Shown in pieces: positions 1,165 to 59,740 of a stretch of DNA of 64,000 nt. Within the stretch, counting starts at the first letter, position 1. Every line of letters begins with the position of its first letter. The stretch is from Squalus acanthias. Lineage: Eukaryota. Under the pieces are notes generated by a model, which was not told where the DNA came from, made no database searches, and saw only the letters and a list, made by a program, of their open reading frames with translations. The stretch is from the NCBI GenBank assembly GCA_030390025.1, contig CM059432.1, positions 23,004,001 to 23,068,000 of the forward strand, given 5' to 3'. The translations under genes were made by a program, and so were the position numbers.

Positions 1165-2317
1165 AATTTGGTTATGGGATGTGGGCAGTCGCTGGCAATG
1201 CCAGCATTTATTGCCCATTCCTAATTGCCCTTGAGAAGGTGGTGGTGAGCCGCCTTCTTGAACCGCTGCAGTCTGTGTGGTGAAGGTACTCCCACAACGC
1301 TGTTAGGTAGGAAGTTCCAGGATTTTGACCCAGCGACGATGAAGGATCATCAATATACTTCTAAGTCAGGATAGTGTGTGACTTGGAGGGGAACTTGGAG
1401 GTGGTGGTGTTCCCATGTGCCTGCTGCCCTTTTCCTTCTAGGTGGAAGAGGTCACGGGTTTGAGAGGTGCTGCCGAAGAAGCCTTGGCGAGTTGTTGCAG
1501 GGCACCTTGTAGATGGTACACACTGCAGCCACGGTATGCCGGTGGTGGAGGAAGTGAATGTTTAAGGTGGTGGATGGGGTGCCAATCAAGCGGGCTGCTT
1601 TGTCCTGGATGGTGTCGAGCTTCTTGAGTGTTGTTGGAGCTGCACTCATCCAGGCAAATGGAGAGTATTCCATCACACTCCTGACTTGTGCCTTGTATAT
1701 GGTGGAAAGGCTTTGGGGAGTCAGGAGGTGAGATACTCGCCGCAGAATACCTAGCCTCTGACCTGCTCTTGTTGCCACAGTATTTATGTGGCTGGTCCAG
1801 TTAAGTTTCTGGTCAATGGTGACCCCCAGGATGTTGATAGTGGGGGATTCGGTGATGGTAATACCGTTGAATGTCAAGGGGCGGTTGTTAGACTCTCTCT
1901 TGTTGAAGATAGTCATTGCCTGGCCCTTGTGTGGTGTGAATGTTACCTGCCACTTATCAGCCCAAGCCGGAACATCGTCCAGGTTTTGTTGCATGCGGGC
2001 ATGGACTACTTCATTATCTGAGGAGTTGTGAATGGCACTGAACACTGTGCAGTCATCACCGAACATCCCCATTTCTGACTTTATGTTGGAGGGAAGGTCA
2101 TTGATGAAGCAGCTGAAGATGGTTGGGCCGAGGACACTGCCCTGAAGAACTCCTGCAGCGATGTCCTGGTGCTGTGATGATTGACCTTCAACCACCACAA
2201 CCATCTTCCTTTGTGCTAGGTATGACTCCAGCCAGTGAGAGTTTTCCCCCCAATTCCCATTGCCTTCAGTTTTACTAGGGCTCCTTGATGCCACACTCGG
2301 TCAAATGCTGCCTTGAT
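1165..2317 (-). mobile_element. 5'-truncated LINE (RT C-terminal half plus 3' tail), same family as 16718-20263
   Basis: ORF 1452-2294 has QGSVLGP and FGDD RT motifs. The sequence is nearly colinear with 18835-20250. Confidence 0.9.
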
Positions 2318-6705: not shown

Positions 6706-7077
6706 TTTTTTTATTCATTCACGGGATGTGGGTGTCGCTGGCCAGCATTTATTGCCCATCCCTAATTGCCCTTAACTGAGTGGCTTGGTAGGCCATTTCA
6801 GAGGGCTGTTAAGAGTCAACCACATTGCTGTGGGTCTGGAGTCACATATCGGCCTGACTGGGTAAGGATGGCAGATTTCCTTCCCTAAAGGACATTAGTG
6901 AACCAGATGGGTTTTTAAGACAATCCAGTAGTTACATGGTCACCAGTACTGATACTAGCATTTGATTCTAGATTTATTTTTTAACTGAATTTAAATTTGG
7001 GATTTGAACTCACGCCTCCAGATCATTAGTCCTCTGGATTACTCGTCCAGTAACCTAACCACTATGCTACCATTCCC
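6706..7077 (-). mobile_element. tRNA-derived SINE made of the head plus 3' tail of the LINE at 16718-20263
   Basis: Reverse complement starts GGGAATGGTAGCATAGTGG, runs through ...ctctgaaatggccta..., then joins directly to aagggcaattagggatgggcaataaatgctggcc and poly(A). Confidence 0.85.
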
Positions 7078-7189
7078 TTAATAATCCACTTTAATAATCC
7101 ACCCATGACATTGACCATCCAGGCTCAAATATGAGGAATCAACATCTTCAGAGGAGGAAAGAAAATTTGGGGAAAAATTATACTCCAGA

Positions 7190-7716: not shown

Positions 7717-8423
7717 TATATTCCGATGTGTGGACTGCAAAGTTTGATAAAGTGTCCCAAACATTTCTGCTGGAGTTTAGCCAAAGGGAAAAGGCCATCA
7801 AAGACTGAGGAGGAGTAAGGGAGTACAATACTGCGCTCCCCATGAATGGGTTAGTGCAGCTTGGCTTGGAGTCTCACAATACAAGACAACAACAAAAAAT
7901 TCTACACTAACACAAACCGTTGGGAGTAAATTATCTACAATAAACCCACAAACGTGCCATAAAAATATTCACTCAAAGCGCTATTGTTTAAAATTAAAAC
8001 ATAGAGCAGGACCCAACAGAGCACATGTCTTCATTTTGAAATGAAATTTTTACTTTTAACTAATAGAAATTTTAAGGTAGAATACACCTTGAAAACCACT
8101 GCTGGAAGCTCTTTTCATTTGGGAATTAACAAGAAAACAACTTCCTTTAATACATTCAGTCTGATGAGGGCAGGCTTTAACAAACTGAAGAGGGAGGCTG
8201 GAAGTGCGTATAATAACAGCCTTCAATTGTGTCGTACATCACTTTAAGTGGATCTCCTCTCAAAAGGAGCACAAAGGAGCTAAGTGAAAGAGCCAGGCTT
8301 TCCTTTATCTTTCTGGCATCCACTGTTTCGAGGCAGCATGTTGCAGTGAAATGCTTTGGGGAGCAGTGCTGATGATTTTCAATGCATACTGTGTATTACC
8401 TGCCGACTCTGCTTCCTTCACAG

Positions 8424-8990
8424 GCTGCAAGAATGTCCACTATGATCTTGTCTTTCTGCTGGACACGTCCTACAGCGTGGGAAAGGAGAACTTTGAAAAG
8501 GTCAGGCAGTGGGTGGCCAATTTGGTGGAGACGTTTGATATCGGTCCAGATAAGACCAGGGTAGGGGTCGTAAGCTACAGTGACAAGCCGCACACGGAGT
8601 TCAACTTAGGTGCTTACCAGAACGTAGACGACATCAAGCAGGCTGCGGCGAGCATCAGGTACCGCCGAGGGAACACCATAACCGGGGAGGCCATTGGCTA
8701 CATCACTTTGAATAGCTTCTCGCAACAGGCGGGCGCAAGACCCAATGATCCGGACATTCAGAAAGTGGCAATCCTCTTGACAGATGGCAGAAGTCAGGAT
8801 GAAGTGTTGCCGAATGCTACCTTGGCTCACTCCGCTGGCATCAGGCTCTTTGCCGTGGGGGTTGGTGACGCCCTTAAGGAGGAACTGGAGGAGATCGCCT
8901 CTGAACCCAAAACAGCTCACATGTTCCACGTTACTGATTTCAATGCCATAGATAGGGTCCGAGGAATACTGCGACAAAGACTGTGTCAAA
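8424..8990 (+). CDS. COL22A1: Collagen XXII alpha-1-like, vWA-domain exon. It may extend 5' to ATG 8351 if the signal peptide is in this exon.
   Basis: Translation GCKNVHYDLVFLLDTSYSVGKENFEKVRQWVANLV...LTDGRSQD...KEELEEIASEPKTAHMFHVTDFNAID...LRQRLCQ closely matches the collagen XXII vWA domain as I recall it, with an intact MIDAS DxSxS. Donor A|gtaagt at 8990/8991 (phase 1). Candidate acceptor ctctgcttccttcacag ends at 8423 (phase 1). Confidence 0.92.
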
Positions 8991-9229
8991 GTAAGTACTT
9001 ACTGTTTGTTATGGGGTGAAGTGCATCAGGCAAGAAGATGTTACCTGAAGGTTTTAGAAAACCATATAAATTCATTTACCTAATGGGCTTCATGCGCCTG
9101 TGAACTTTTGATCATTCATTTTTAGTTGTATGTAACTGCACTCATCCATGAGTTAAAGTAACTATGTCAACCTGCCTGAGGCAGAGAAGTATATGTGATT
9201 GGACAAGCAGAAGTTATACTTGGCGGAGG

Positions 9230-13589: not shown

Positions 13590-14070
13590 TTTTTTTTACT
13601 TGTTCTTGGGATGTGTATGACACGGGCAAGGCCACAATTATCGCCCATCTTAGTTTCCCCGAGAAGGTGGTGGTGGTGGTGGACTTTCAGTTTGAACTGA
13701 TGCAGTCCTTGTGATGATGGTGCTTCCACAATGGTCTTATGTAGGGCATTCCAGGATTCTGACTGAGCGACACTGAAGTCAGGATGATGGTGTTCCTACA
13801 ACATTGCTGGTCTTGTTCTTCTTGATGGTAGAGCTCACAGGCGAGGAAGGTGATGCTAAAGTAACCTTGGTGAGTTGCTGTAGTGCATCGTGTAGATCGT
13901 ACATACAGCATCTACATGTGAGCCAAGGGTGGAGGGAGTGGATATTGAGTCCAGTGGCAGTGGCACCAGTCAAGTTAACCACTGTGTCCTGGATGGTGTT
14001 GAGCTTCTTGAGTGTGTTGTGGTTGCACCCATCCAGGTGAGTGGTGAGTATTCCATCACAGTCTTGAATT
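13590..14070 (-). mobile_element. Older, degenerate copy of the 16718-family LINE 3' end
   Basis: Gapped similarity to 1165-1700. Confidence 0.65.
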
Positions 14071-14267: not shown

Positions 14268-15797
14268 CTATTGGTAGTGGGGAAGCTTTTAGAAACGATA
14301 ATCTGGGACAAAATTAACAGTAACTTGGACAAGTGTGGATTAATTAAGGAAAGCCAGTACGGATTTGTTAAAGACAAATCATGTTTAACTAAATTGATTG
14401 AGTTTTTTGAAGAGGTAACAGAGAGGGTTGATGAGGGCGATGTGATTGATGTGGTGTACATGGACTTTCAAATGGCATTTGATAAAGTGCCACATAATAG
14501 GCTTCCCAGCAAAGTTGAAGCCCATGGAATAAAAGGGACAGTGGCAGCATGGATATGAAATTGGCTAAGTGACAGGAAACAGAGAGTAGTGGTGAACGGT
14601 TGTTTTTCAGACTGGAGGAAGGTATACAGTGGTGTTCCCCAGGGGTCGGTATTAGGACCACTGCTTTTCTTGATATATATTAATGACTTGGACTTGGGTG
14701 TACAGGGCACAATATCAAAATTTGCAGCTTACACAAATCTTGGAAGTATCGTGAACAGTGAGGAGGATAGTGATAGACTTCAAGAGGACATAGACAGGCT
14801 GGTGGAATGGGCAGACACGTGGCAGATGAAATTTAATGCAGAAAAGTGCGAAGTGATACATTTTGGTTGGAAGAACAAGGAGAGGCAATATAAACTAAAG
14901 GGTATAATTCTAAAGGGGGTGCACGAACAGAGAGACCTGGGGGTATATGTGCAGAAATCGTTGAAGGTGGCAGGGCAGGTTGAGAAAGCGGTTAAAAAAG
15001 CATACAGGATCCTGGGCTTCATAAATAGAGGTCATGATGCGGAGATGCCGGTGTTGGACTGGGGTGGACAAAATTGAGAGGTCGCACAACACCAGGTTAT
15101 AGTCCAACAGTTTTATTTGAAATCACAAGCTTTCGGAGCTATCGATTTGCTCCTTCCTCAGGTGAAGTGGTGTTGTGCGACCTCTCAATTTCATAAATAG
15201 AGGCATAGAGTACAAAAGCAAGGAAGTTAAGATGAACCTTTATAAAACACTGGTCTGACCTCAACTGGAGTACTGTGTCCAATTCTGAGCACCACACTTT
15301 AGGAAGGATGTGAAGGCTTTAGAGAAGGTGCAGAAAAGATTTACAGGAATGGTTCCAGGGATGAGGGACTTCAGTTACGTGGATAGACTGGAGAAGCTGG
15401 GGTTGTTCTCCTTAGAGCAGAGAAGGTTGAGAGGAGATTTGATAGAGGTGTTCAAAATCACGAGGGGTCTAGACAGAGTAGATAGAGAGAAACTGTTCCC
15501 ATTGGCGGAAGGGTCGAGAACCAGAGGACACAGATTTAAGGTGATTGGCAGAAGAACCAAAGGTGACATGAGGAAAAACATTTTTACACAATGAGTGGTT
15601 AGGATCTGGAATGCACTGCCCCAGATTCAATCGTTGCTTTCAAAAGGGAATTGGATAAGTACCTGAAGGAAAAAAAAATTGCAGGGCTACGGGGAAAGGG
15701 CGGGGGAGTGGGACTAGCTGAAGTGCTCTTGCAAAGAGCTGGCACGGGTTCAACGGGCCGAATGGCCTCCTTCTGTGCTGTAACCATTCCATGATTG
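14268..15797 (+). mobile_element. CR1 LINE RT fragment interrupted by a Penelope-like insertion
   Basis: KSCLTKLIEFFEEV, DFQMAFDKVPH, GVPQGSVLGP and RRLRGDLIEVFKI motifs. Internal stops. CR1 tail. Confidence 0.92.
15032..15189 (-). mobile_element. Short Penelope-like element (PLE) end with hammerhead motif
   Basis: 14-bp TSD ttcataaatagagg (15018-15031 / 15190-15203). Short inverted end. Homologous to 19288-19546 and 49641-50172. Confidence 0.8.
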
Positions 15798-16128: not shown

Positions 16129-16717
16129 GGTAGGAATACAGATAAGAAAAGCCCAGCACTGTGGCAACCAACTACCCACTTCCCATCAATGTGAGAAGGG
16201 GACAGAGACTCAGGAATATCACTGGATGAAGAAAGGGAGAGTTTTACACAGAGGGTTATTAGAACATGGAATACCTTACCACAAGTGGATACTGAGGCAA
16301 AAACTATAGCATCATTTAAAAGGAAATTGGATAAATACTCAAAAAAGAAAAAGATAAAAGGATATGGGGAAAGAGCAGGAAAACACGATTAGTCTGCCTA
16401 AGTTAAGGTGCTTGCACATTCACATTCACATTCACATGTACAGAATGGCCTCCTTCTGTGCTGTAATTTCTATTATTCTAGTGGCTAATAATAGAATAGC
16501 ACGGACTGACGTCTGGAAGCAAGTGCTGCCTTATTTGTTGGGGATGATAATCCTGTAGTTCTGATACAGACCCTTTTTGCAATTTGTTAAACATTGTTTA
16601 ACAATATCTAATTTGCAATTAGTTAACTCATCATTAAGAGGTGATTTTGAAATTAAATGCAACCTTGGTGAGATCATTAGTATTGCGAGTATTGTGTCCA
16701 GTGTTAATCCCAGAGCA

Positions 16718-19700
16718 GGGAATGGTAGCGCAGTGTTAATGTCACTGGGCTAATCATCCAGAGGCCTGGACTAATGATCCAGAGACGTGAGTTCAAATCC
16801 CACCACGGCAGCTGGGGAATTTAAATTCAGTTAATTAAATATCAAATAAATAAATAAATCTGGAATAATTACTAGTATCAGTAATGGTAACCATGAAACT
16901 ATCGGATTGTCATAAAAACCCATCTGGTTCACTAATGTCCTTTAGGGAAGGAAGTTTGCAGTCTTTAACTGGTCTGGCCTATATGTGACTCCAGACCTAC
17001 AGCAATGTGGCTGACTCTTAACTGCCCTCTGAAATGGCCTAGCCATTGTAACAAACTGCTACGAAACAAAATAATAAGAATGAAACCGACCTCGGCACTG
17101 GCTACGGACACGGCAATGGCACGCCCAGTCGACCCTGCAAAGACCTCCCCACTGACATCTGTGGACTTTTGCCAAAATTGGGAGAGCTGTCCCACAGACT
17201 AGTCAAGCAACAGCCTGACATAGTCATACTTACAGAATCATACCTTTCAGCCAATGTCCCAGACTCCTCCATCACCATCCCTGGGTATGTCCTGTCCCAT
17301 CAGCAGGACAAACCCACCAGGGGTGGCGGCACAGTGGTATACAGTCGGGAAGGAGTGGCCCTGGGAGTCTTCAACATTGATTCCGGACCCCATGAAGTCT
17401 CATGGCTCCAGGTCAAACATGGGCAAGGAAACCTCCTGCTGATTACCACCTACCGCCTTCCCTCAGCTGATGAATCAGTACTCCTCCATGTTGAACACCA
17501 CTTGGAAGAAGCACTGAGACTAGCAAGGGCACAGAATGTACTCTGGGTGGGGGACTTCAATGTTCATCACCAAGAGTGGCTCGGTAGCACCACTACTGAC
17601 CGAGCTGGCCGAGTCCTGAAGGACATCGCTGCCAGTCTAGGCCTGCGACAGGTGGTGAGAGAACCAAAACGAGGGAAAAACCTACTTGACCTCGTCCTCA
17701 CCAACCTACCTGTCGCAGATGCATCTGTCCATGACAATATTGGTAGCGGTGACCACTGCACAGTCATTGTGGAGACGAAGTCCCGTCATCACACTGAGGA
17801 CACCCTCTATGGTGTTGTTTGGCACTACCACCGTGCTAAATGGGATAGATTCAGAACAGATCTAGCAGCTCAAAACTGGGCATCCATGCGGCGCTGTGAG
17901 CCATCAGCAGCAGCAGAATTGCATTCCACCACAATCTGTAACCTCATGGCCTGGCATATCCCTCACTCTACCATTACCATCAAGCCAGGGGACCAACCCT
18001 GGTTCAATGAGGAGTGTAGAAGAGCATGCCAGGAGCAGCACCAGGCGTACCTAAAAATGAGGTGCCAACCTGGGGAAGCTGCAACACAGGACTACATGCA
18101 TGCTAAAAAGCGGAAGCAGCATGCTATAGACAGGGCTAAACGATCCCACAATCAACGGATCAGATCAAAGCTCTGCAGTCCTGCCACATCCAGTCGTGAA
18201 TGGTGGTGGACCATTAAACAATTAACAGGAGGAGGAGGCTCCATGAATATCCCCATCCTCAATGATGGTGGAGCCCAGCACATGAGTACAAAAGACAAGG
18301 CTGAAGCGTTTAGCAGCCAGAAGTGCCGAGTGGATGATCCATATCGGCCTACTCCTGAGGTCCCCACCATCGCAGAAGCCAGTCTTCAGCCAATTAGATT
18401 CACTCCACGTGATATCAAGAAACGGCTGTGAGCACTGGATACAGCAAAGGCTATGGGCCCCGACAACATCCCGGCTATTGTGCTGAAGACTTGTGCTCCA
18501 GAAACTAGCCGCACCTCTAGCCAAGCTGTTCCAGTACAGCTACAACACGGGCATCTATCCGACAATGTGGAACATTGCCCAGGTATGTCCTGTCCACAAA
18601 AAGCAGGACAAATCCAACCCGGCCAATTACCGCCCCATCAGTCTACTCTCAATCATCAGCAAAGTGATAGAAGGTGTCATCGAAAGTGCGATCAAGCGGC
18701 ACTTACTCACCAATAACCTGTTCACTGATGCCCAGTTTGGGTTCTGCCAAGACCACTCGGCTCCCGACCTCGTTACAGCCTTGGTCAAAACATGGACAAA
18801 GGAGCTGAATTCCAGAGATGAGGTGAGAGTGACTGCCCTTGACATCAAGGCAGCATTTGACCGAGTGTGGCATCAAGGAGCTCTGGTAAAACTGAAGTCA
18901 ATGGGAATCGGGGGGGAAACGCTCCACTGGCTGGAGTCATACCTAGCACAAAGGAAGATTGTTGTGGTGGTTGAAGGTCAATCATCACAGCCCCAGGACA
19001 TTGCTGCAGGAGTTCCTCAGGGCAGTGTCCTAGACCCAACCATCTTCAGCTGCTTCATCAATGACCTTCCCTCCAACATAAGATCAGAAATGGGGATGTT
19101 CGCTGATGACTGCACAGTGTTCAGCGCCATTCACAATAATGAAGCAGTCAATGCCCGCATGCAACAAGACTTGGACAACGTTCAGGCTTGGGCTGATAAG
19201 TGGCAGGTAACATTCACATCACAGGAGTGCCAGGCAATGACTATCTCCAACAAGCGAGAGTCTAACCACCTCCCCTTGATATTCAACAAAAATGAGAAGT
19301 CGCACAACACCAGGTTATAGTCCAACAGATTTATTTAAAATTACAAGCTTTCGGAGCTGTCGCCCCTTCGTCAGGTAAAGGTGCAATGAAGGAATCCACA
19401 ATATTACACAGCTCCGAAAGCTTGTAATTTTAAATAAATCTGTTGGACTATAACCTGGTGTTGTGCGACTTCTCATTTTTGTCCACCCGAGTCCAACACC
19501 GACATCTCCGCATCATGACCACTATTCCTGGCCAGGATGGAGATGATTGATATTCAACGGCATTACCATCGCCGAATCCCCCACCATCAACATCCTGGGG
19601 GTCACCATTGACCAGAAACTTAATTGGACCAGCCACATAAATACTGTGGCAACAAGAGCAGGTCAGAGGCTAGGTATTCTGCAGCAAGTGTCTCACCTCC

Positions 19701-20263
19701 TGACTCCCCAAAGCCTTTCCACCATCTACAAGGCACAAGTAAGGAGTGTGATGGAATACTCTCCACTTGCCTGGATGAGTGCAGCTCCAACAACACTCAA
19801 GAAGCTCGACACCATCCAGGACAAAGCAGCCCGCTTGAGTGGCACCCCATCCACCACCTTAAACATTCACTTCCTCCACCACTGGCGTACCGTGGCTGCA
19901 GTGTGTACCATCTACAAGATGCACTGCAACAACTCGCCAAGGCTTCTTCGGTAGCACCTCTCAAACCCACGACCTCTTCCACCTCGAAGGACAAGGGCAG
20001 CAACCATATGTTAACACCACCACCTCCAAGTTCCCCTCCAACTCACACACCATCCTGACTTAGAAGTATATCGCCGCTCCTTCATTGTCGCTGGGTCAAA
20101 ATCCTGGAACTCCCTACCTAACAGCACTGTGGGAGTATCTTCACCACACGGACTGCAGCATTTCAAGAAGGTGGCTCACCACCACCTTCTCAAGGGCAAT
20201 TAGGGATGGGCAATAAATGCTGGCCTTGCCAGCGATGCCCACATCCCATAAACAAATAAAATA
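16718..20263 (+). mobile_element. Near full-length LINE (CR1 group, possibly Zenon-like) with tRNA-SINE head and a disrupted APE-RT ORF
   Basis: A box TAGCGCAGTG at 16726 and B box GTTCAAATCC at 16791. APE motifs ILTESYL, GDFNVHH, LDLVLTN and GDHC. RT motifs ALDIKAAFDRVWH, GVPQGS and FADD. Stop at 18429, frameshift near 18503, PLE insert at 19288. A-rich tail. Confidence 0.9.
19288..19546. mobile_element. Inverted-repeat PLE insertion with hammerhead motif
   Basis: 12-bp TSD ttgatattcaac (19276-19287 / 19547-19558). Inverted arms at about 19288-19360 and 19408-19481. Confidence 0.82.
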
Positions 20264-21716
20264 ACTTAGAGGATTGAGCAATGAAGATTGATTGTGTATG
20301 CTGGGATTTTCTCTCTTGAAACAAAAAGACTAAGGGGAGACTGGATATAAGTTTATGAAGGGTTACTGTATGTTTGATACAGTACACAGATTTCCAGAAT
20401 GATAGGGTATATCTGAGATTTGTATCGAATCATAGAATCATACAGCACAGAAGGAGGCCATTTGGCCCATTGTGCCTATGGCGGCTCTTTGATAGAGTTT
20501 GCCAATTAATCCCACTACCCTGCTGTTTCCCCATAACCCTGTAATGTTTTTTTTCCTGTCATATCTATTTGTATAAGATAACGAAAGCTAAATAGGCAAT
20601 CTTGTGTTCACAAAAGGGTGATCAACATTTGAAACAAACTTTCAGGTGTTTGAACAGGAAACTTTAAATGGTTTTGAGAAAGCTCCAGGCATCTGACAGG
20701 ATTCAGTTGTTAAACTGTATAATTGATTTTACCTAAAAACCCAACTATTCGCCCAATATAAATTGGAATGTAGCTTTGTCACTCATCTGTGGTCATTTTT
20801 CACCTCAGTGACCACCACTTATCCTCGCACGTGCATCGACATACTTGGAGATCACTAGTGAAATGTTGTCCAGTCTAATCAGTGCAGCTCAGTAACGTCT
20901 CTGCCTTTGACTGCTGACAGCCGCCAGACTGTCGGCACTCAGCACTCGACTAGTGAGCAGAGATTGGTGCAGACAGTCATTCACAACATAAAGATTGCCA
21001 AGTACAGGGTTAGAGATTGGCCTGTCGTACTGTACTTTGGCAGAAGTCTTTTTCTATTAGAAGCAATGAATAATTTTATACAGTAACAGAACTGATATTT
21101 AACTGTTATAGTCTAGTATTTACTGTTCCCCAACGTGCAGCTTTAACAACAGTGGGAAACTTGGATAACTGGTTGTCTTCTCTCCCGCCCAACTCCCTCC
21201 TGTCCCCCCACCCCCACACCCGTCTACTAGACTAATAGGGATTAAATTAACGAATGACCTCAGCCCTTGGCACCTATCTTTACTGGCTGTAAGGGGGGGA
21301 AGTCATTAGTTCTGACAGTCCATGTTTAGTGAGGCATGTCTCTCTCCGTATATATACCACCATTTTATTTAAAGGGAAAATACCCATAAAACTGCGCGAG
21401 GCCAAATTCAGAATTTCCTGATTTAATCTAAAATGGTTCAATAGGAATCAGTCCGGATATACATTTGATGCTCATTCTTAAACTGAAAGATGCATCTGTT
21501 ATGTTTTCTTGGCTTCATTGCAAATTTTTCTCTCAAAGTCAATGCTAAAGACCACACACAATAATAATTCGTCACTCCTATGAACCAGAGTGTGACTCGA
21601 TATACTCAATGTCTGTCCTGTAAGCATTGTCCAGGTTTGGGTTGAACATGAACCCTTGTTAATGAATTGGCATGAGCCTTCTCGTGCTCTTCTGATGGTG
21701 GAATAATAAATACTCT

Positions 21717-23039: not shown

Positions 23040-23383
23040 CTTTATTCATTCTCGGGATGTGGGTATCATTGGCAAGGCCAGCATTTATTGCCCATCCCCA
23101 GTTGCCCTGATACAACTGAGTGGCCTGCTAGGCTACTTCAGAGAGTAGTTAAGAGTCAACCATGTTGGTGTGGGAATAAAGTCACATATAGGCCAGACCC
23201 GGTAAGTACGGTAGGTTTCCTTACCTAAAGGACCTCAGTGAATCAGTCGGGCTTTTACGACAATCTGACAGCTTCATGGTCACTTTTACTGATACCAGCT
23301 TTTTATTTCCAGATATTTTTTTAAACTGAATTCAAACTCTCAAACTACCATGGTGAGATTTGAATTCATGTTCTCTGGATTAT
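23040..23383 (-). mobile_element. Diverged copy of the head-plus-tail SINE (6706 family)
   Basis: Colinear with 6706-7040. Confidence 0.75.
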
Positions 23384-23839
23384 TATACACCCATTATACA
23401 TCCCGCCCATTTTGCTTTCCGTTGAAATCAGTTTCCCACCCTGCCAAAAGTGAAAAGTATCCCCTTTAACTTCAAAATTATTATTTTTTTCTGCAAAAAT
23501 CTCTTCCGTCTGTTTAGCTAGACAGTAAATAAAAGGGAACGTGACTTTGCATTATTACTTCCATTCTAAGCTGGTTGAGATTTGTAAAAGCTGTGCATAT
23601 TGGGACTCAGCAACGGAGAGGTAGAAGAGCTTTAGGACGCATTACGGCAAAGCGGTGGGATCTGGCGGAGGGAGAGGCGGAAGCAGTACAGCACTTTGGA
23701 TAGGAAGGGACAAAGCATTGAGACTCAGCCAGTGAGGAATCAGAGAGTATCGAAGTGAGCAGGAAGAGGGAGCTAAAGCCAAAGACCATTCTCACCCCAG
23801 GGTGTTGAGACTAAAACTTATTTGTGATGTTCAGAAAGA

Positions 23840-24445: not shown

Positions 24446-26164
24446 TTTGAATGTTCCTAAGAACTAGGGTAGGAGGGGCAGGAGCTCTAATTGGCCAAAT
24501 GTCCTTTTTTCATTCTTGATTTATGTTCTGAATCTGTTAAAACCTTTCCAATTATGTCTATAGATTTATGATTGTGGAAGAACTGTATCGCTTGCAGATG
24601 AAAGTAGTTTAGTGTGGGTACAGACTTTCTGCTGGCTATTAACATAATGTGGGAACTGTAATGATCCCATTGCAGAGCCCTGAGGGACAACCAATCAATC
24701 ACGTTAGTGTCAGATGGTGACCCTTCAACGGAAACCATTTGATGTCATGTCTAAAAGATATGCTTGGAATGGTTTCAGTGCAACAGTGAGTTTCTCTGTT
24801 AGGAGACATAAGCAATTTGTATTGTATCAAAGGTCATGGCATATCAGAAGTGTTACAGTACATTACAGAAGTTATAATAGGATACCTAACAGATCAAGCA
24901 GATGCCATTTGACTCTCAAACAGGAGGTTATAAATTTTGGTCTCTGGGTTGCCTGTTATTCAAAAAAAAAATTTGCTTCCTCCTATACAACAGAATACTG
25001 AGCTGCATGAATCAGCTTTGATCCCGACATGCCCTTGACTCTGACTCCATCAGCCACTTCGGCTGTTCTTTCAGATTGGATCTTGTGCTGTTCAACAACA
25101 CCCGCTTCATAGAAACATAGAAACATAGAAGATAGGAGCAGGAGTAGGCCATTCGGCCCCTCAAGCCTGTTCCGCCATTTAATGAGATCATGGCTGATCA
25201 TCCAAATTCAGTACCCTTCAATCCTGAGCTGAGCATTTTATCTCCAAATCCAGCTGTTGTCAAGATTGCATTTTTCCACCTGCAGAACATTGCCTGCTTT
25301 CGCCTATATTTCTTCTTGTTGGTCTCTTTGCCTCCATCCATCAGTTAATCCAGAACTCTCCTGATTTCCGTCCGTCTCTTTCCTCCACAGTGGATTGACT
25401 TCAAGATCCTTGTCCTTGTCTTTCAAATCACTCCACAGTCTCACTGCACCCTACCTAAGCAATCTTCTCCAGCCATACATCTGTACCTGAATTCTCCACT
25501 CCTTTGACTTCACACCATCGCTTCTTACCTGCTCCACTATCAGAGAATGATCATCAGCCATTATGTCCTACGTTTTGCAATTCTCTCCAAAATCATTTTC
25601 CTTCACTATCTCCTTTATTGCATTCAAAAGCCTCTTTAAAGACCGCTTCCCCTTTCTCTGACTATATCTGTGGTCTCTCCCTCACTCTCCCTCCCAAATT
25701 CCTCCTTTTCCTGCTTGGTATCCATTTCTCCACCTTTGAGATGTACTTTTATGCAAGGAGTGCTAGGGAGAGAGGGAGACACGTGAAAGTTGTTATTAGT
25801 CAACAGATCTGAGCTAAAGTAGTGGCAGCGTTCGACAACTGGCCTCAGTACCCCTGGGATCAGGAGGAGAAAAAAAAATCAGCTAGCGATCCCAGTGTTC
25901 AGTGGCCTCTACTAGAAAGTGTACATGTGTGGAGGTAAGGCAGTGACAGGATTGGGCTCAGCTGTGATACTCTGCATGATCTGCCATCATTTGCTATTTG
26001 GACTCGTAAGAATCACCACCTGGTTGAGGTTGACCCATGGCTCATGATCCAGCATATGCTACTTGCTTCAGGAGAGGAGGAAAAACATTTGAAGGGAACA
26101 AAATCTGAAAACACAAATCTAGTTTGTTTATAAGATCACATGAATGACACAACTGCGGATTATT

Positions 26165-26890
26165 TTTTTTATTCGTTATGGGATGTGGGCATCACTGGCA
26201 AGGCCAGCATTTATTGTCCATCGCCAGTTGCCCTTGAGAAGGTGGTGGTAAGCTACCTTCTTGAACCGCTGCAGTCCGTGTGGTGAAGGTACTCCCACAA
26301 TGCTGTTAGGGAGGGATTCCAGGATTTTGACCCAGCGACGATGAAGGATCAGCGATATACTTCCAAGTAAGGATGGTGTGTGACTTGGAGGGGAACTTGG
26401 AGGTGGTGGTGTTCCCATGCGCCTGCTGCCCTTGTCCTTCTAGGTGGAAGAGGTCACAGGTTTGGGAGGTGCTGCCGAAGAAGCCTTGGCGAGTTGCTGC
26501 AGTGAATCTTGTAGATGGTACACACTGCAGCCACGGTACGCCGCTGGTGGAGGGAGTGAATGTTTAAGGTTGTGGATCGGGTGCCAATCAAGCGGGCTGC
26601 TTTGTCCTGGATGGTGTCGAGCTTCTTGAGTGTTGTTGGAGCTGCACTCATCCAGGCAAGTGGATCACACTCCTTACTTGTGCCTTGTAGATGGTGGAAA
26701 GGCTTTGGGGAGTCAGGAGATGAGACACTCGCTGCAGAATACCTAGCCTCTGGCCTGCTCTTGTTGTCACAGTATTTATTTGGCTGGTGCAGTTAAGTTT
26801 TTGGTCAATGGTGACCCCCCAGGATGTTGATGGTGGGGGATTCGCCGATGGTAATACCGTTGAATGTCAAAGGGAGGTGGTTAGACTCCT
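26165..26890 (-). mobile_element. 5'-truncated copy of the 16718-family LINE
   Basis: Colinear with 1165-1895. Confidence 0.88.
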
Positions 26891-30297: not shown

Positions 30298-31091
30298 GGG
30301 GCGAATTTTAACCCCCCACGATGGGCGGGAAAGGGGTGGGGGGAAAGGTTAAAATTTCAAAAATCTGAAACCCGACCCCAACCCGCCTCGAATGTGTCCA
30401 CATCCGGTTTTAATGGGGGCGGGTTGGGGAGCGGACAACTAACTTGCCCTCAAGAGGTGGGCCAGTTATTTAAATGTGTTAATGAGGCGGCATGCCTCAA
30501 ATTTTAACAGACTTTTAAATTTAATGGCTCGTGGAACTCGATAGCTGAAGGGAGATGAGAAAGGCCGGATCCAACAGGTAAATGCCTTTCCAGCACTGCT
30601 TGTGGGCCTGGCGGAGCAGGTGTGCTTCCTCCCAGCCCCTCAAGCAAACATGCTTCCCTCCTCGCAATCGGCCTCCCTCCCCGCGATTCAAAGCCCCCCA
30701 TGACCCGTGATCTCTTCAACCACCACCCTACTTTTTACCCGAGATCCACGATCTCTTCAACCACCACCCCATGATTTCCCCCCGACCCGTGATCACTTCA
30801 ACCGCCCCCCCACAATCTCCCCTGACCTACGATCTCCCCCAACCCACAAACTCTTCAACCCATCTCCCACCCACGATCTCTCCCTCTCTCCCTTCCTACT
30901 CCAGGCTCCCTGGCTGCAGCCTTCCAACATCGGCCTTTGCACCCGACAGCCAGCCAGCCTCTCAATCTGGCTGGCTGCTAGCCGGGAAATGGGAAAAAAA
31001 ATTCAAATGAGGTCCTTCCGTTAAATTCGGCAGGGCCTCCACTTTAACCGCATTTCCGCTCCCTCACCGCCTCCCTATAAATATCGGGACC
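30298..31091. mobile_element. Harbinger-type MITE
   Basis: GGGGCGAATTTTA...TAAATATCGGGACC flanked by ATA on both sides. Confidence 0.72.
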
Positions 31092-32749: not shown

Positions 32750-34370
32750 AAATAGGAGCAGAATCAGGCTACACAGTCCCTGGGCCCGCTCCACTACCCA
32801 CAGGGCCATGACCGATCCGAACCTAGACTCATGTCCAAATTCCTGCCCGCTCCCCGTAACCCTTAATGCCCTTTACTTCTAGGAAACTGTCTATTTCTGT
32901 TTTAAATTTAATTAATGTTGTAGCTTCTACAGCTTTTTGTGGCAGCATATTCCATGGACCTACCACCCTCTGAGTGAAGTAGTTCCTCCTCATCTCAGTT
33001 TTGAAAGAGCAGCCCCTTATTCTAAGACTATGTCCCCTAGTTCTCGTCTCACCCGTCGTCGGGAACATCCTCCCCGCATCCACCCGATCCAACCCCTTCA
33101 CAATCTTATATGTTTCAATAAGATCGCCTCTCATTCTTCTGAACTCCAATGAGTAGAGTCCCAATCTACCCAACCTCTCCTCATATGACCACCCCCTCAT
33201 CCCCGGGATTAACCGAGTGAACCTTTTTTGCACTGCCTCGAGAGCAAGGATGTCTTTCCTTAAGTAAGGACACCAAAACTGTATGCAGTATTCCAGGTGC
33301 GGTCTCACCAATACCTTGTACAACTGAAGCAATACCTCCCTATTTTTATATTCTATCCCCCTAGCAATGAAAGCCAACATTCCATTTGCCTTCTTAATCA
33401 CTTGCTGCACCTGCATACTATCCTTTTGAGTTTCGTGCACCAGGACCCCCAGATCCCTTTGCACTTCAGTACTCTCCAGTTTCTTGCCATTAAGATAATA
33501 AATTGCTCTAGGATTTTTCCTGCCAAAGTGCATCACCTCACACTTTCCAGTGTTGTATTCCATCTGCCAAATCTCTGCCCACTTACTTAGCCTGTCTATG
33601 TCCCCTTGCAGGTTTTTTATGTCCTCCTCACTCACTACTTTCCCTCCCATCTTAGTATCATCTGCAAATTTTGATATGTTACACTTGGTCCCTTCCTCCA
33701 AATCGTTAATATAGATTGTAAAGAGTTGGGGACCCAGCACTGACCCCTGTGGAACACCACTAGTTACTGATTGCCAGTCTGAGAATGAACCATTTATCCC
33801 AACTCTTTGCTTTCTGTTAGATAGCCAATCCTCTATCCATGCCAGAATATTACCCCCAATCCCGTGATTTTTTACCTTAAGCAATAATCTTTTGTGTGGC
33901 ACCTTGTCAAATGCCTTTTGGAAGTCTAAATACACTACGTCCACTGGTTCCCCTTTATCCACTCTATATGTTACTTCCTCAAAGAACTCCAGCAAATTTG
34001 TCAAACATGACTTCCCCTTCGTAAAACCATGCTGACTTTGTCCTATTAAATTATGATTATCCAAATGTCCTGTTACTGTTTCCTTAATAATGGACTCCAA
34101 AATTTTACCTACCACAGATGTTAGGCTAACCGGTCTATAGTTACCAGCCTTCTGTCTACTGCCCTTTTTAAATAAGGGTGTTACATTAGCAGTTTTCCAG
34201 TCTGCCGGGACCTTAGCGGAATCCAGGGAGTTTTGAAAAATTATTACCAATGCATCTACAATCCCTACCGCCACTTCCTTCAAGACTCTAGGATGTAAGC
34301 CATCAGGTCCAGGTGATTTATCCGCCTTGAGTCCCATTATTTTACCGAGTACCACTTCCTTAGTGATTTT
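32750..34370 (-). mobile_element. Young CR1 LINE with uninterrupted RT-domain ORF (5'-truncated)
   Basis: ORF 32829-34526 has KSPGPDG, NYRPVSLTS, DFQKAFDKVPH, GVPQGSVLGP and FADD with no stops. The first ~50 aa come from flanking sequence. Confidence 0.95.
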
Positions 34371-36161
34371 GATCAGGTAGGAATGGAAACACAAAGGCAG
34401 TCCCTTGGAGCTGAACAATGGAGGAAAGTCCATGGAAGGGGATGATGTGGCTGTCCATATTGAGTGCTGTGGAAAGGTCAAGGTGGATAAGGAAGGATAA
34501 TGCATCACAATCACTGAAGATGTCATTTATAAATTTGGTCATGGTGGTCTCAGTGCTGTGAGCAGGGCAGAAACTAGACTGAAGGAATTCAAACAGGGAG
34601 TTTTGGGAGAGATGGGTACAGAGCTGCGAGTGAATGCCACATTCTAGGACATTATAGAAGAAAGGAAGGCTAGAGGTGGGGCTGTACTTAGAGAAGACAA
34701 CTGCATCAGAGGTGAATTTGATAATGGAAGGATGGGGTAGGGTAGATGCCCAAGCAAAGAAAATAATTAACAACATTGGCCAGCATGAGGGCCAGGAAGT
34801 TTAGTTGATTGGTCAGGAGTTATCAAGAGAGCACTAGGTATGTCTCATTAGAGGTTAGCTTAGAGAGGGTAGGGTGATTAATAAAGTGATTGATGTAGAG
34901 TAGGTAGGAGACTGGGAGGAGGGGGAGAAGAGGTTGGACATGGGGAGAAAGGGGAGATAATAGCAAAGGTGGCTGAAATCCTTGAACTCCTCAGACTTGG
35001 CATTGGCGGTGAGGGTGGAGGAGGACGAAGAGATGGATTTGAGAAGGTGTTTAGTCATGCAGAAAAGGAGCATTGGGTTGTTCTTGTCTTCAATGTAATT
35101 CTGGAGGAATTGGAGGATTTTGTCTAGGAAACAAGGCATGGTAATACAAGACATGGTTGGGCCAAATCTGTCAATAAATGACTAGTTGTGCATCAGTTGC
35201 CTCTGAGTTTGCAGCCCTCTGACTTAAGATAGAGAAGATGAAGAATGTATGGGGGAAATGGTGGGGGTGAGAAACAGTAATTGATTTGGTTGAATCGAGG
35301 GCATCAGTGGCAAAGGCAAGGTAGCAGTTTAGCAGGTCAACAATACAGATAGACAGAAAGAAGGCCAGATGAGAGGGAGATGGGAATTTGAGAATGAACC
35401 AGTGAGGGAGCTGAGAGAGAGTTTTCCATGAGCATATGTTGAGGGTAGTGGGTGTTGAGGGTAGTTGCTATAGAGGAAGGTAGAGGGACATCGGGATAAG
35501 GGATTGATCAGAACATTGGGACAGGTGGCTGATCGGGATGAGAGGGCATGAATGGTGGCCGGCAGTATTTTGTTGTTTTATTGTTGAGCCAGGAGGAGTA
35601 CTCCTGCTCCTCCTAACTCCACATTCAGGTCAGTATTTTTTCAAAACTTACCTTGGTGATGACCTGTAGCGGTCTCTTTAAAGATCGCCAGTTAGGCCGT
35701 ATGACCTGGTTTTCCTGATTTTCAGGGCAACCCAAATTTGCACAGGGTGCCTCAAACAAGTGTTAGGCCCCTTCTTTGCATATGCAAAGGGCCTAATGCC
35801 TGTTTAAGGCGCTAACCCTGGTAGCCTATATTTTGCCTATACTAATATGGTGGGCGGCGCACTTTCAGCTCGTAATGAGTGTGTACTTCTTACCTGCCAT
35901 ATTGGAAGCTTTGGTGCCCATTTAGCACCGCGAATCAGGTGTAGCGCCATCGAATTTCTAGACCCAAGTTCCCTTCGAACTAGGTTATGTCACCTTCTGT
36001 AACTATTGTTTGTTTTACTTGTTACCCAAATACCTGTTTTAAATTAGACCAAACATATTGGATAACTGTACACTTCGGAAGTAATTTTTGTCCCCCGTGG
36101 TAATCTTGGTATCAAATTGACCCAAAACTTGCTGTGGCAGACTTGCCCTTGCCCGTTTAAT

Positions 36162-48842: not shown

Positions 48843-49640
48843 GGCATTGTCTAAATGACAGCTAAATGTTGAATTTGACATTTTCCTTCCAGCCAGTGTC
48901 CAATACAGATATTTATTAGGGCAAATGATTTGATACAGCGTGACATCCCATGGATATCCCACAGACTTGCTGCTCAAGTACTAAAACTTTGCATAAAAGG
49001 TTGTGGAGGCTGTGAGAATGAGGATGTTCGAGCGATTGAAACTTATCACAACAAGTAACTTGCTCTAATTATTATTTGGTGCAATCATTTTTGTATTATC
49101 CTTCTTTCACATTCTCCACCAGCTTCTCCTTAAAAAATGTACTTAAAAGCTTTTTTTATTTAGCTGCTTGCGCCATTACTCTCGATCCTATGGTCCGTTT
49201 TGGAAAAAAAATAATTTAATTGGACAAAAATACATTTTAAAGATATTCCTGTCAGCAGCCCTGCTGCTCGACAGCACCCAGGCAAGTAAACTCGACTGCA
49301 GAACTCAAAGGGTTAACATTAAAATGAAAGCCAATGGTAGATATTTAAAGTGAACATGTATGAATCTGTCCACAAAGTGGTCCACAAATCCCAATGAGAA
49401 CAGAAGACTCTATCTTAGAGCCATATGTAAAATGTATTACACTAAGGGAATTGCTATATAGAAGCAGTCAAAGGGTTGTGAATCTTGGTAATTCTCTACC
49501 CTAGGGGGCTGTGGATGCTCAGTCATTGTGTATATTCAAGACAGGGATCACTAGATTTTTAGATACTAACGTAATCAAGGGATATGGGGATAGTGCGGGA
49601 AGGTGGAGTTGAGGTAGAAGATCAGCCATGATCTTATTGA

Positions 49641-50172
49641 GAAGTGGCACAACACCAGGTTATAGTCCAACAGTTTTATTTAAAATTACGAGCTTTCGGA
49701 GCTGTTGTCCCTTCGTCAGGTAAAGGTACAATGAGGGAATCTATTACACAGTATATAAACACAGAAAGCAATTTGTCTGCAGAGATACAATCTTTTAGGG
49801 AGGCATTACATCAAAGACACATCAGAGTACAGCTAAGACAAAGAGATGGGTCACAGGGGGTCAAAAAAAAAGTTAAAAGCTCAACTGCAGACGGCAGGAT
49901 TTGACACGTTGGACCCCCTGTGACCCATCTCATTGTCTTAGCTGTACTCTGATGTGTCTTTGATGTAATGCCTCCCTAAAAGAATGTATCTGCAGACAAA
50001 TTGCTTTCTGTGTTTATATACTGTGTAATAGATTCCCTCATTGTACCTTTACCTGACGAAGGGGCAACAGCTCCGAAAGCTTGTAATTTTAAATAAAACT
50101 GTTGGACTATAACCTGGTGTTGTGCGACTTCTCATTTTTGTCCACCCCAGTCCAACACCGGCATCTCCGCAT
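49641..50172. mobile_element. Inverted-repeat PLE insertion in a CR1 3' tail (about 49465-50230)
   Basis: 14-bp TSD catgatcttattga (49627-49640 / 50173-50186). Arms at about 49641-49862 and 49912-50130. Hammerhead motifs on both strands. Confidence 0.87.
50049..50086 (+). ncRNA. Minimal type I hammerhead ribozyme motif (PLE-associated)
   Basis: TTAC-CTGACGA-A-GGGGC-AACA-GCTCC-GAAA-GCT-T-GTAA: stem I TTAC/GTAA, catalytic core, stem II, and palindromic AGCT in place of stem III. Confidence 0.75.
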
Positions 50173-50964
50173 CATGATCTTATTGAATGGCGGAGCAGGC
50201 TCAAAGGGCCAAATGGCCTACTCCTGCTCCTATTTCTTATGTTCTTATATTCTCGGTCTTTGTCCATCCAAGTGCTATAGTGAAGGGAAGCAACAGATGG
50301 ACAGTATATCTTGTGTAGATATACACAAATAATTACCTATTGGTGTTACAATTTTTCAACACAGTTTAGTGTCAACATTTCCATTTCAAATTTGCCACAT
50401 CAACTGTCGCAATGTTCTGGTCACAAGGCAGCTCTGTGAACTGAGTTTCTGCAGTCTCTCTCCCAACGAATCGTCATCATGTATATAAAAAAAAAAATTC
50501 ATCAACTCACCATTGGCAATGCCAAGGGCAATATACTAGTGCGGTTGTGTGTAGTTAAGTAATATATTTGTGATCTTCGATTTGTTGCATCAGCTGGCCT
50601 GTCTGTAACATGTGCTCCCACCAAGAGAGAGGGCAGAAAGTTGCTCACAAACTTGTGTTGGAGTTGTCACTGTCCATTTTTGATTGGAAAGTCCTAATAG
50701 GCTGGGTGGACAAGATCCATTTTCGAGTGTGAGGCCCCGTGTTCATCCCATTTTCTAGGTCGCACACAATCTCGTAGAAGCCAAGTATTTATGGTTAGTA
50801 TAGGACTCAGAGACTCCGGGTTTTGCTGTTTCAGTTGGTATGAGTAGACAACTTCTTGCCTCGTTCTCCACTCAGCAACCACTGCTGCTGAGATCTGTAT
50901 GAGTTATTTGCAGCCAGGTTAATCTGATGTCCTGATGTTAAGATCCTGCAAATCCATTGGCAGG

Positions 50965-52363: not shown

Positions 52364-54213
52364 AAACATAGAAACATAGAAGATAGGAGCAGGAGTAGGC
52401 CATTCGGCCCCGCGAGCCTGCTCCGCCATTTAATGAGATCATGGCTGATCATCCAAATTCAGTACCCTGTCCCTGCTTTCTCCCCATATCCCTTTAGCCT
52501 TAAGAAATATATCTAACTCCTTCTTGAATATATTTAATGAATTGGCCTCAATTGCATTCTGTGGTAGAGAATTCCACAGGTTCACCACTCTCTGGGTGAA
52601 GAAATTCCTCCTCATCTCAGTCCTAAATAGCTTTCCCCTTATCCTTAGACTGTGACCCCTGGTTCTGGACTCCCCCGCCATCGGGAACATCCTTCCTGCA
52701 TCTGGTCTGTCTAGTCCTGTTACAATTTTATAAGTTTCAATGAGATCCCTCTCATTCTTCTAAACTCCAGCGATTATAAGCCTAATCGACCCAATCTCTC
52801 TTCATAAGTCATTCCTGCCAACCCAGGTATCAGTCTGGTGAATCTTCGCTGCACTTACTCCATGGCAAGAACATCCTTCCTCAGATAAGGCGACCAAAAC
52901 TGCACACAATACTCAAGGTGTGATCTCACCAAGGCCCTGTACAACTGCAGCAAGACGTCCTTGCTCCTGTACTCGAATCCTCTCGCTATGAAGGCCAACA
53001 TACCATTTGCCTTCTTAACCGCCTACTGCACCTGCATGCTTACCTTCAGTGACTGGTGCACAAGGACACCCAGGTTTCGTTGCACTTCCCCTTCTCCCAA
53101 TCTATTGCTGTTCAGATAATAATCTGCCTTCCTGTTTTTGCCACCAAAGTGGATAACCTCGCATTTATCCACATTATACTGCATCTGCCATGCATCTGCC
53201 CAATCACCCAGCCTGTCCAAATCATACTGGAGTTTCTCTGCATCCTCCTCACAGCACACACGCCCACCCAGCTTTGTGTCGTCTGCAAACTTAGAGATAT
53301 TACATCTAGTTCCCTCGTCTAGATCATTAATATATATTGTGAATAGCTGGGGTCCTAGCGCCAATCCCTGCGGTACCCCACTAGTCACTGCCTGCCACCC
53401 GGAAAAAGACCCGTTTATTCCAACTCTTTGTTTCCTGTCTGCCAACCAGTTTTCTATCCAAGTCAGTACCTTACCCCCAATCCCATGTGCCTTAACTTTA
53501 CACGCTAATCTCTTATGCGGGACCTTATCGAAAGCCTTCTGAAAGTCCAAATACACCACCTCCACTGGTTCTCCCTTATCTATTCTACCAGTTACATCCT
53601 CAAAAAATTCCAGTAGATTAGTCAAACATGAATTACCTTTTGTAAATCCATGTTAACTTTGTCCGATCCTGTCACTGTTTTCCAAGTGCTCTGCTATTAC
53701 ATCTTTTACAATGGACTCTAGCATTTTCCCCATTACCGATGTCAGGCTTACCGGTCTATAATTCCCCGTTTTCTCTCTACCACCTTTTTAAATAGTGGGG
53801 TTATATTAGCTACACTCCAATCCATGGGAACTGTGCCAGAGTCTATAGAATTTTGGAAGATGACCAGCAATGCATCTACTATTTCTAGGGCCACTTCCTT
53901 AACTACCCTAGGATGTAGATTATCAGGCCCTGAGGATTTATCGGCCTTTAATTCCGTCAATTTCGCTAACACCATTTCCCTACAAATACTGATTTCATTC
54001 AGTTCCTCCCTCTCATTAGACCCTATGTTCCCCGACATCTCTGGGAGGTTATTTGTGTCCTCCTTTGTGAAGACAGAACCAAAGTATGTATTTAATTGGT
54101 CAGCCATTTCTTTGTTCCCCATTATAAATTCCCCTGATTCTGACTGCAAGGGGCCTATGCTTAACTTCACCAATCTTTTTCTCTTCACATATCTATAGAA
54201 GCTTTTACAGTCA
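52364..54213 (-). mobile_element. CR1 LINE, 5'-truncated and frameshifted
   Basis: KSFYRYVKRKR, DFQKAFDKVPH and FADDTK motifs. (ctatgttt)n tail. Confidence 0.92.
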
Positions 54214-54299
54214 GTAGAAAGTAGAAAGACAATCAGATCAGGAATGACAACCAGGCACTTTTGTTTCTTCGATGCTGCGTTACAGCTTATCCTCATTTC

Positions 54300-54465
54300 A
54301 CCACCCATGTTTTCAAGGTCAGGCACTTGTTTCTGTACATGTATCCTGAAGGAGACCACAACAGAACTATGGACAATCCTGCAGCCAGGCTGGAGAACCA
54401 CTTCCAGGCCAGGGATGACTGTTAGTTGTTGCGAAGATGACAACTCTTATGCAACAGGCTCCAGG
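54300..54465 (+). pseudogene. Degenerate PIF/Harbinger transposase N-terminal remnant
   Basis: Frameshifted pieces HVFKVRHLFLYM, KETTTELWTILQP, VVAKMT and YATGS follow the order I recall for HARBI1-like transposases. Confidence 0.5.
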
Positions 54466-59334: not shown

Positions 59335-59740
59335 ACTGCACTCTATGCACTCCAGTCCATTCGATTCCATTCCAGTGCGCTCCACTCCATTCCACTTTGC
59401 TGCACTCCGGTCTGCTCCATTCCATTCCACTTTGCTCGATTCCAGTTCGCTCCACTCCATTCCACTTAGTTCCACTCCAGTGCACACCACTCCACTCCAC
59501 TGAATATGAAAAAAACAGCTCTTTAGATCACTTCATTGTTCTCCGCCTTACTGAACATCATTTCACTCCACTACTCACCAATCTACGGCATTAGATACAA
59601 ACAATTGTCTTGCACTCTATTCTATTGGACTCCAGTGGATACACTCCACTGGAAATGGCTGTGCTGTAAACGGACACCACTGCACACTACTGTGCTCCAT
59701 TTGATACCATTGCAATGCACTACTCTCCATTCCCTCACTA
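59335..59740. repeat. Degenerate (CTCCA/TTCCA)n pentamer repeat
   Basis: Seen directly, just downstream of the TSPN exon donor. Confidence 0.8.

Follow-up and report, generated by a model that had tools for sequence, protein, structure and literature searches.

The stretch analyzed here, a window of 64,000 nucleotides from Squalus acanthias (contig CM059432.1, positions 23,004,001 to 23,068,000), contains at 16718-20263 on the plus strand a defunct copy of a shark long interspersed nuclear element (LINE) that is abundant and belongs to the CR1/L2 group. The element encodes an endonuclease and a reverse transcriptase (RT) in one open reading frame (ORF), lacks ORF1, and has a 5' untranslated region (UTR) that consists of the head and body of a short interspersed nuclear element (SINE) derived from a transfer RNA (tRNA) (Table 1). 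Without a later insertion of another repeat, it measures 3,275 nt. Its LINE identity is established by the presence of both an apurinic/apyrimidinic (AP) endonuclease and a non-long-terminal-repeat RT among its Pfam domains and by dispersed copies truncated at the 5' end, including three further copies in the window that share the tail end. The element falls outside the strict vertebrate CR1 and L2 clades, because its RT groups apart and ORF1 is absent; no ORF1 was found in the mere ~430 nt that precede the endonuclease.

The head of the element resembles that of a SINE2, with A and B boxes and a weak Rfam tRNA match at 16729-16811 (23.5 bits, E = 0.12, under the gathering score of 29), whereas its length of 3.3 kb and an ORF of ~910-940 codons set it apart from the short and non-coding SINE2 elements. 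ARAGORN detects no tRNA in the head, and the boxes were located by motif pattern. A 21-nt tandem duplication within the head (16745-16786) widens the spacing between the A and B boxes. The body putatively represents the Deu domain of SacSINE1.

The copy in the window is considered dead because of a private stop at 18429 (T>A in >99% of public contig depth), a frameshift near 18503, where the contigs also show loose ends, small deletions, and the insertion. The latter has perfect inverted arms of 75 nt (19286-19360 and 19408-19482), breaks the frame of the ORF, and adds runs of four (T4, at 19428) and five Ts (T5, at 19476) to the sense strand. Neither the copy at 1165-2317 nor the public contigs contain it, the latter having loose ends at 19279; the sequence-only reading had taken it for a PLE. 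Read from the AUG codons at 17005, 17080, and 17116, the frame of this copy is +1 relative to the endonuclease and extends to PVDPAK, followed by a stop; nine AUGs lie upstream of 17080. In a predicted protein of the whale shark (P0042), PVDPAK runs directly into the endonuclease. At this site, either a base is missing from the window copy or a -1 slip is used throughout the family.

Table 1. Features of the element, its relatives, and terminator-like sites in the window (+, sense strand of the element)
Feature	Positions	Strand	Evidence and remarks
tRNA-like head	16718..16811	+	A box 16726-16736, B box 16791-16799
SINE-like body, common to two SINE copies in the window	16812..17043	+	blastn and alignment
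TCTTT	16962..16966	+	looks private; lacking in both SINE copies and in the consensus of loose ends behind 16953 (X8, X15)
Leader, from SINE-like body to endonuclease	17044..17135	+	deletion at 17043 in window copy
Stop-to-stop frame with AP-endonuclease domain (~17181-17753)	17052..18431	+	Pfam PF03372 (E = 2.7e-9), PF14529 (E = 6.3e-12)
TTTT, only sense T4 outside the insertion	17167..17170	+	probably a private mutation of a Val codon; not among the 40 of 163 contig differences listed
TGTTT	17816..17820	+	looks private; 17819 is G in ~99% of contig depth, 4/4 runs
RT domain	18487..19287	+	Pfam PF00078 (E = 1.6e-34)
Later insertion of another repeat	19288..19558		12-bp target duplication 19276-19287 / 19547-19558
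Single ORF, C-terminal part	19559..20203	+	translation; stop 20201-20203; two internal stops in window copy
3' tail common to SINEs	20190..20263	+	AATAAA 20212-20217; no internal T4
First T4 in flank	20307..20310	+	44 bases beyond the 3' end
5'-truncated copy of same LINE	1165..2317	-	91-94% identical; 0 T4, 3 T3
5'-truncated copy of same LINE	about 26164..26888	-	91% identical; 0 T4, 1 T3
Older related 3' fragment	13591..14065	-	66% identical; 0 T4
SINE, head and body joined straight to LINE tail	6706..7078	-	A and B boxes present
Second SINE copy, degraded 5' end	23041..23400	-	body and tail joined at shared TCA

The join between head and ORF is no local accident, and public contigs support its presence throughout the family. 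The element and the two SacSINE1-like SINEs in the window have in common the ~325 bases at the start, which comprise both boxes and the body, and the last ~70. In blastn comparisons, head and body are 78% identical to one SINE (16717-17041 vs 7078-6789) and 75% identical to the other (16772-17043 vs 23385-23127), and the 3' end of the element matches the tails of both (6773-6706 and 23108-23041) with 84-85% identity; Rfam finds no tRNA match in the SINE at 6706-7078. Public contigs that align to the window come from four runs (X1, X6, X8, and X15; contigs only) of three organisms given in code, with X15 possibly comprising RNA-derived contigs. In all four runs, the most common loose end behind 17043 leads into the leader of the LINE and not into the tail of the SINE (238, 292, 283, and 33 contigs in X1, X6, X8, and X15; agreement 0.60-0.66). 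Among the 184,228 aligned contigs of X1, depth, which is no copy number, rises from ~5,000 in the bin 16640-16728 to ~1.4 million in the bin 16729-16817, being ~270-fold lower in the flank before the head. Contigs cover all 30 of 30 bins without a gap, although no single contig extends over the whole element. The whale shark protein P0042 also has body-derived residues ahead of the endonuclease start, in which a predicted intron may be involved. In one SINE, body and tail meet at a TCA that is present on both sides in the LINE, as would be the case if the SINE originated by internal deletion of the LINE; the reverse order, with the body of a LINE inserted into a SINE, is possible.

The sequence-only reading had noticed a scarcity of T runs on the sense strand and proposed selection for RNA polymerase III (Pol III) read-through. 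Its counts are accurate: a single TTTT (17167-17170) is present in 3,275 sense bases outside the insertion, none in the minus-strand copies at 1165-2317 and 26165-26890, and four T4+ runs in the minus-strand CR1 at 32750-34370. The sense strand of the element has a T fraction of 0.208 and an observed/expected (o/e) ratio of 0.78 for TT. The single T4 contrasts with 4.88 expected by base shuffle (p = 0.034; all p-values are nominal and derive from many tests). Taken by themselves, the two short copies carry no information on this point (0.8-1.6 T4 expected, p = 0.18-0.42; both cover the same 3' part). The four T4 of the CR1 at 32750-34370 agree with the 4.4 and 5.4 expected at its T content of 24.6%, so that much of the difference between the element and CR1 is a matter of composition. 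Relative to control sense strands from the window (CR1, 7,572 nt; L2, 5,739 nt; RTE, 1,122 nt), the element has 0.31 T4 per kb vs 3.4 in CR1, 3.7 in L2, and 4.5 in RTE (pooled; p = 0.064 after adjustment for composition).

The deficit extends to shorter runs. The element contains 12 runs of three or more Ts (T3+) vs 23.4 expected (o/e 0.51, p = 0.007), as opposed to o/e ratios of 1.18, 1.01, and 1.30 in CR1, L2, and RTE. After adjustment for base composition, this contrast in T3+ between the element and the controls has p = 0.003. The probability that a T is followed by another falls from 0.163 after T to 0.117 after TT and 0.077 after TTT, compared with the T fraction of the strand; A and G show no such fall. 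Terminators were defined as T4+, TVTTT, and TTTVTT, a class tested in human systems; available sections of PMC3141230 and PMC8466645 document TTTT and TVTTT as tested Pol III terminators. The class is represented by 3 sites vs 9.3 expected by base shuffle (p = 0.010) in the element and by 231 vs 214 (base) and 216 (dinucleotide) in the pooled controls, and the equivalent class for A on this strand does not deviate from expectation (30 vs 28.7). The numbers of A4 runs are likewise as expected (14 vs 15.9), for which reason avoidance by the element of its own T-rich endonuclease target was rejected.

The same trend is present at synonymous sites that allow T or C and have no G directly after them. 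Here, T is used at 63/229 sites without a flanking T, at 41/146 sites with one, and at 5/48 sites with two. Synonymous permutation yields 8 T3+ vs 14.3 (p = 0.012) and 2 terminators vs 5.7 (p = 0.04) in the element; the o/e ratios of T3+ are 0.94 in CR1, 1.09 in L2, and 0.93 in a relative (L022). These values are from a stratified permutation; an unstratified Fisher test is confounded by CpG decay (odds ratios of 0.56-0.64 in controls). A 'third-position-matched' null was rejected, because CR1 looks depleted under it as well (p = 0.03, 0.017) and TTT ranks just ninth. Avoidance of T runs is broad, moderate, and limited to T on the sense strand, and it supports the direction of the sequence-only reading.

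All three terminator-like sites that remain in the window copy look private, suggesting that the master of the family was probably devoid of terminators. At 17167, the window copy encodes Leu, and the two close homologues that cover the site encode Val (P0042 of the whale shark) and Met (P0028). All three codons are one step from GTG, so that an ancestral GTG would give no T4. The sequence-only reading had left it to be checked whether this run is private; the Val and Met of the homologues, rather than contig differences, indicate that it probably is. A partial consensus, based on 37 of the 40 listed differences (omitting two in the flank and one with low support) and the majority of three copies for the 3' part, contains 9 T3+ vs 22.2 (base) and 12.9 (dinucleotide, p = 0.097), and 6 vs 12.5 by synonymous permutation (p = 0.007). 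With two inferred corrections added, terminators drop to 0 vs 4.2 (p = 0.008, dinucleotide; 0.0035, synonymous) in the best case, which is an upper bound because the corrections were picked after seeing that they remove terminators.

The close homologues of the element include named entries of Heptranchias perlo, Heterodontus francisci, and Rhincodon typus. According to a quick RT tree, which was built without named references and with a long-branched L2 row, and in which the L022 row was disregarded for being out of frame, the element belongs to a clade of 14 rows (SH-like approximate likelihood ratio test, 99), apart from CR1 and L2 of the window. Its RT is 36-37% identical to those of L022 and L024. 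No tRNA head was found in the four relatives for which DNA is available. In these headless, ORF1-less invertebrate relatives, T4 is at or above expectation (28, 26, 5, and 2 runs), and a T-run deficit is absent in three of the four. Since the relatives keep their T4 runs, the deficit is no habit of the clade; their hosts are different, and two of them have a very high T content.

In searches of other datasets, the endonuclease query yielded 0/10 candidates in viral contigs and 0/86 in metagenome contigs; the tail motif is absent from viral and genome contigs, and 21 metagenome loci with the motif were dismissed as chance, because none matches past 18-45 bases. The alignment query recovered 0/20 viral contigs and 4/7 genome contigs, which were used as controls (LINEs inside prokaryote bins). 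Among them are eukaryote-type, ORF1-less LINEs with A-rich tails in genomes labelled Algimonas (L022, 1091-4030, with an intact frame of 979 codons) and Endozoicomonas (L024, 3860-6860, in a contig of 716 kb), which probably represent host contamination.

LINEs are taken to be transcribed by RNA polymerase II (Pol II) and SINEs by Pol III. For the family described here, we give an even chance to a Pol III-driven coding LINE. In view of a head with A and B boxes throughout the family, read-through by Pol III would be the simplest single cause of the avoidance of T runs, an avoidance that agrees with such transcription without proving it. In this scenario, TFIIIC would bind to both internal boxes, and the full 3.3 kb would be transcribed by Pol III. 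An internal T4, TVTTT, or TTTVTT would cut the RNA ahead of the 3' tail needed for reverse transcription; because terminators would cost the element its tail, active masters would be purged of them, chiefly through synonymous use of C over T. Pol III would halt at the first T run in the flank (20307 at this locus), as for Alu. The uncapped RNA would be translated without cap scanning, and the protein would bind the ~70-nt tail, whereupon target-primed reverse transcription would copy the RNA. Each full-length copy would carry its promoter within, and a SINE that shares both ends would be mobilized as well. Because of the upstream AUGs and the frame mismatch at 17080/17116, translation would be unusual under either polymerase.

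More tentatively, the element may be an autonomous protein-coding LINE with a Pol III transcript over all 3.3 kb, cap-free translation, and every terminator purged. The SacSINE1-like SINE would then be its internal-deletion derivative, formed at the TCA microhomology, and the conserved Deu body, for which an explanation has long been lacking, would be a working 5' UTR that serves as translation entry or as a ribonucleoprotein signal.

Several results weigh against a role of Pol III. The T4 count of the element lies within the expectation of dinucleotide shuffle (2.36, p = 0.29), codon shuffle of 2,475 coding bases (2.6, p = 0.22), and synonymous T/C permutation (1.9, p = 0.41), and even zero T4 would be unremarkable (p = 0.15, dinucleotide; 0.27, synonymous permutation). 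The sequence-only reading had itself named a count within shuffled expectation as the outcome that would speak against it; its TTTT count cannot carry the inference, whose direction is backed instead by the deficit in T3+ and terminator-like sites. By dinucleotide shuffle, however, neither the terminator class (3 vs 5.5, p = 0.18) nor T3+ (p = 0.17) of the main copy is significant, and the same holds for the dinucleotide-adjusted contrast between element and controls (p = 0.23, 0.17). Individual controls also dip, namely, the CR1 at 53023-54446 (T4 2 vs 5.1, p = 0.04), the CR1 at 14559 and 23894 combined (T3+ 10 vs 14.3, p = 0.03), and the relative L023 (T3+ 9 vs 13.8, p = 0.016). The predicted orientation bias, a more severe depletion of TVTTT than of TTTVT, is not seen in the element (TVTTT 2 vs 5.1; TTTVT 0 vs 4.9). 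According to available sections of PMC3141230, a T3 that stands alone has hardly any terminator activity, so that a deficit of T3 requires an indirect reason. Folding of the first 443 nt is no more stable than that of shuffled sequences (z = -0.21), which lends no support to a structured ribosome entry site. Moreover, the contig differences listed (40 of 163) do not amount to a full family consensus.

A possible but less likely alternative is composition and codon habit alone, in which a T-poor, C-rich strand with few TT and little Phe would belong to a LINE made by Pol II, and the captured head would be passive or a Pol II 5' UTR. It agrees with the low T and TT contents and with the dinucleotide expectation for T4, T3+, and terminator class of the main copy; T4-free stretches of 1.2-1.6 kb span CR1 and L2 sequence in the window too. 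At 2.2% of 908 amino acids, Phe is below that of all 42 full-length relatives (2.3-6.4%), yet the nearest of them (P0023) has 2.3%. The TT deficit is itself unusual, however, as in CR1, L2, and RTE TT does not rank with the four rarest dinucleotides, and a null that preserves dinucleotides takes up the signal that it is meant to test. With TT at a normal level, the copies at 1165-2317 and 26171-26870 still have only 3 T3+ vs 7.4 (p = 0.010) and 1 vs 4.1 (p = 0.027), although they overlap and are not independent. Furthermore, the use of T at synonymous sites drops just with two flanking Ts (28%, 28%, and 10% with zero, one, and two), and a T-poorer relative (L025, T = 0.163) has two T4 in 953 nt.

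An improbable alternative is a Pol II transcript under selection against U runs at the RNA level, which would avoid U-rich signals for decay or cleavage, polypyrimidine splice acceptors, or enhancers of polyadenylation. The deficit is strand-specific, TA is low as well (0.67), and avoidance reaches T3 and TT, neither of which by itself stops Pol III (PMC3141230, available sections). By contrast, CR1, L2, and RTE of the same window, which are presumed Pol II transcripts, lack such a deficit, and the SINE and old copies of the family, for which Pol III is expected, are equally low in terminators (1 vs 5.3, base; 2.9, dinucleotide). Least probable, and very much so, is a historical or mixed use (a lineage shaped by Pol III, or one read by both polymerases, with Pol III RNA as copying template and the protein made from Pol II RNA that originates by host read-through or at a second promoter), which would explain the T-run deficit without the need to translate RNAs that lack a cap, but conflicts with the tendency of LINE proteins to act mostly in cis, as stated for L1 (both points from available sections of PMC11485995).

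If the family is indeed driven by Pol III, vertebrates would have a natural Pol III messenger of several kilobases, which would force a cap-independent route of translation. The function of the conserved SINE body would become testable in its native coding context, and the element would represent a compact, self-contained retrotransposon and yield a rule for the sequence of long Pol III transcripts. Should composition be the sole cause, the hybrid architecture of LINE and SINE remains, for which no description was found.

The surroundings of the element comprise several other features. A perfect 22-nt inverted pair (16444-16465 / 20441-20462) flanks the element at a distance of 4 kb and resembles two opposed CR1 3' ends. 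At 8288-9019 on the plus strand, an exon-like frame encodes a von Willebrand A domain with collagen VI alpha 3 as the best match among solved structures; the LINE may sit within an intron of a gene of the collagen type that has the same orientation. The CR1 at 32750-34526 (minus strand) has an unbroken frame of 565 codons and belongs to a young CR1 family. Pieces similar to the short repeat family of the insertion occur at 15024-15167, 49638-49751, and 50021-50177, with a hairpin-forming inverted repeat (49829-49945) between two copies. By eye, other copies of this family may have a hammerhead-like core; Rfam detects no ribozyme in the family. Minisatellites are located at 59348-59501 (period 35/70) and 30696-30827 (period 41).

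In a literature search that left most subscription papers and Repbase outside, no tRNA-headed autonomous LINE and no Pol III transcription of one were found. The closest systems are the Deu-SINEs of sharks and coelacanth, SacSINE1 and LmeSINE1, which available sections of PMC5499810 and PMC3747384 describe as having a tRNA-related head, a conserved body, and a tail shared with a LINE (L2-2_CM in PMC5499810; CR1-4_DR-like in a table of PMC3747384). The SINEs of the window share this layout and are putatively SacSINE1. In these sections, homology between SINE and LINE is at the tail alone, whereas the LINE in the window carries head and body too. The bipartite RTE/Vingi SINEs (Bov-tA, CoeSINE4, and SINE2_Gav; PMC5786205, available sections) likewise have 5' and 3' parts in common with a LINE, but their tRNA head is present only in the SINE, whereas the coding element in the window itself starts with the head; the same source treats LINEs as Pol II transcripts. 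The ORF1-less LINEs of the CR1 group (L022, L024, P0023, and their kin) have the same single ORF for endonuclease and RT (~960-980 amino acids) and no long upstream ORF; unlike the element, they lack a tRNA head and their T4 runs are at expectation. Alu and other terminator-less SINEs, as presented in available sections of PMC11485995, resemble the element in their internal A and B boxes and probably also in the lack of an internal terminator and a stop at T runs in the flank; by contrast, they are ~300 nt long and non-coding, whereas the element is a coding sequence of 3.3 kb.

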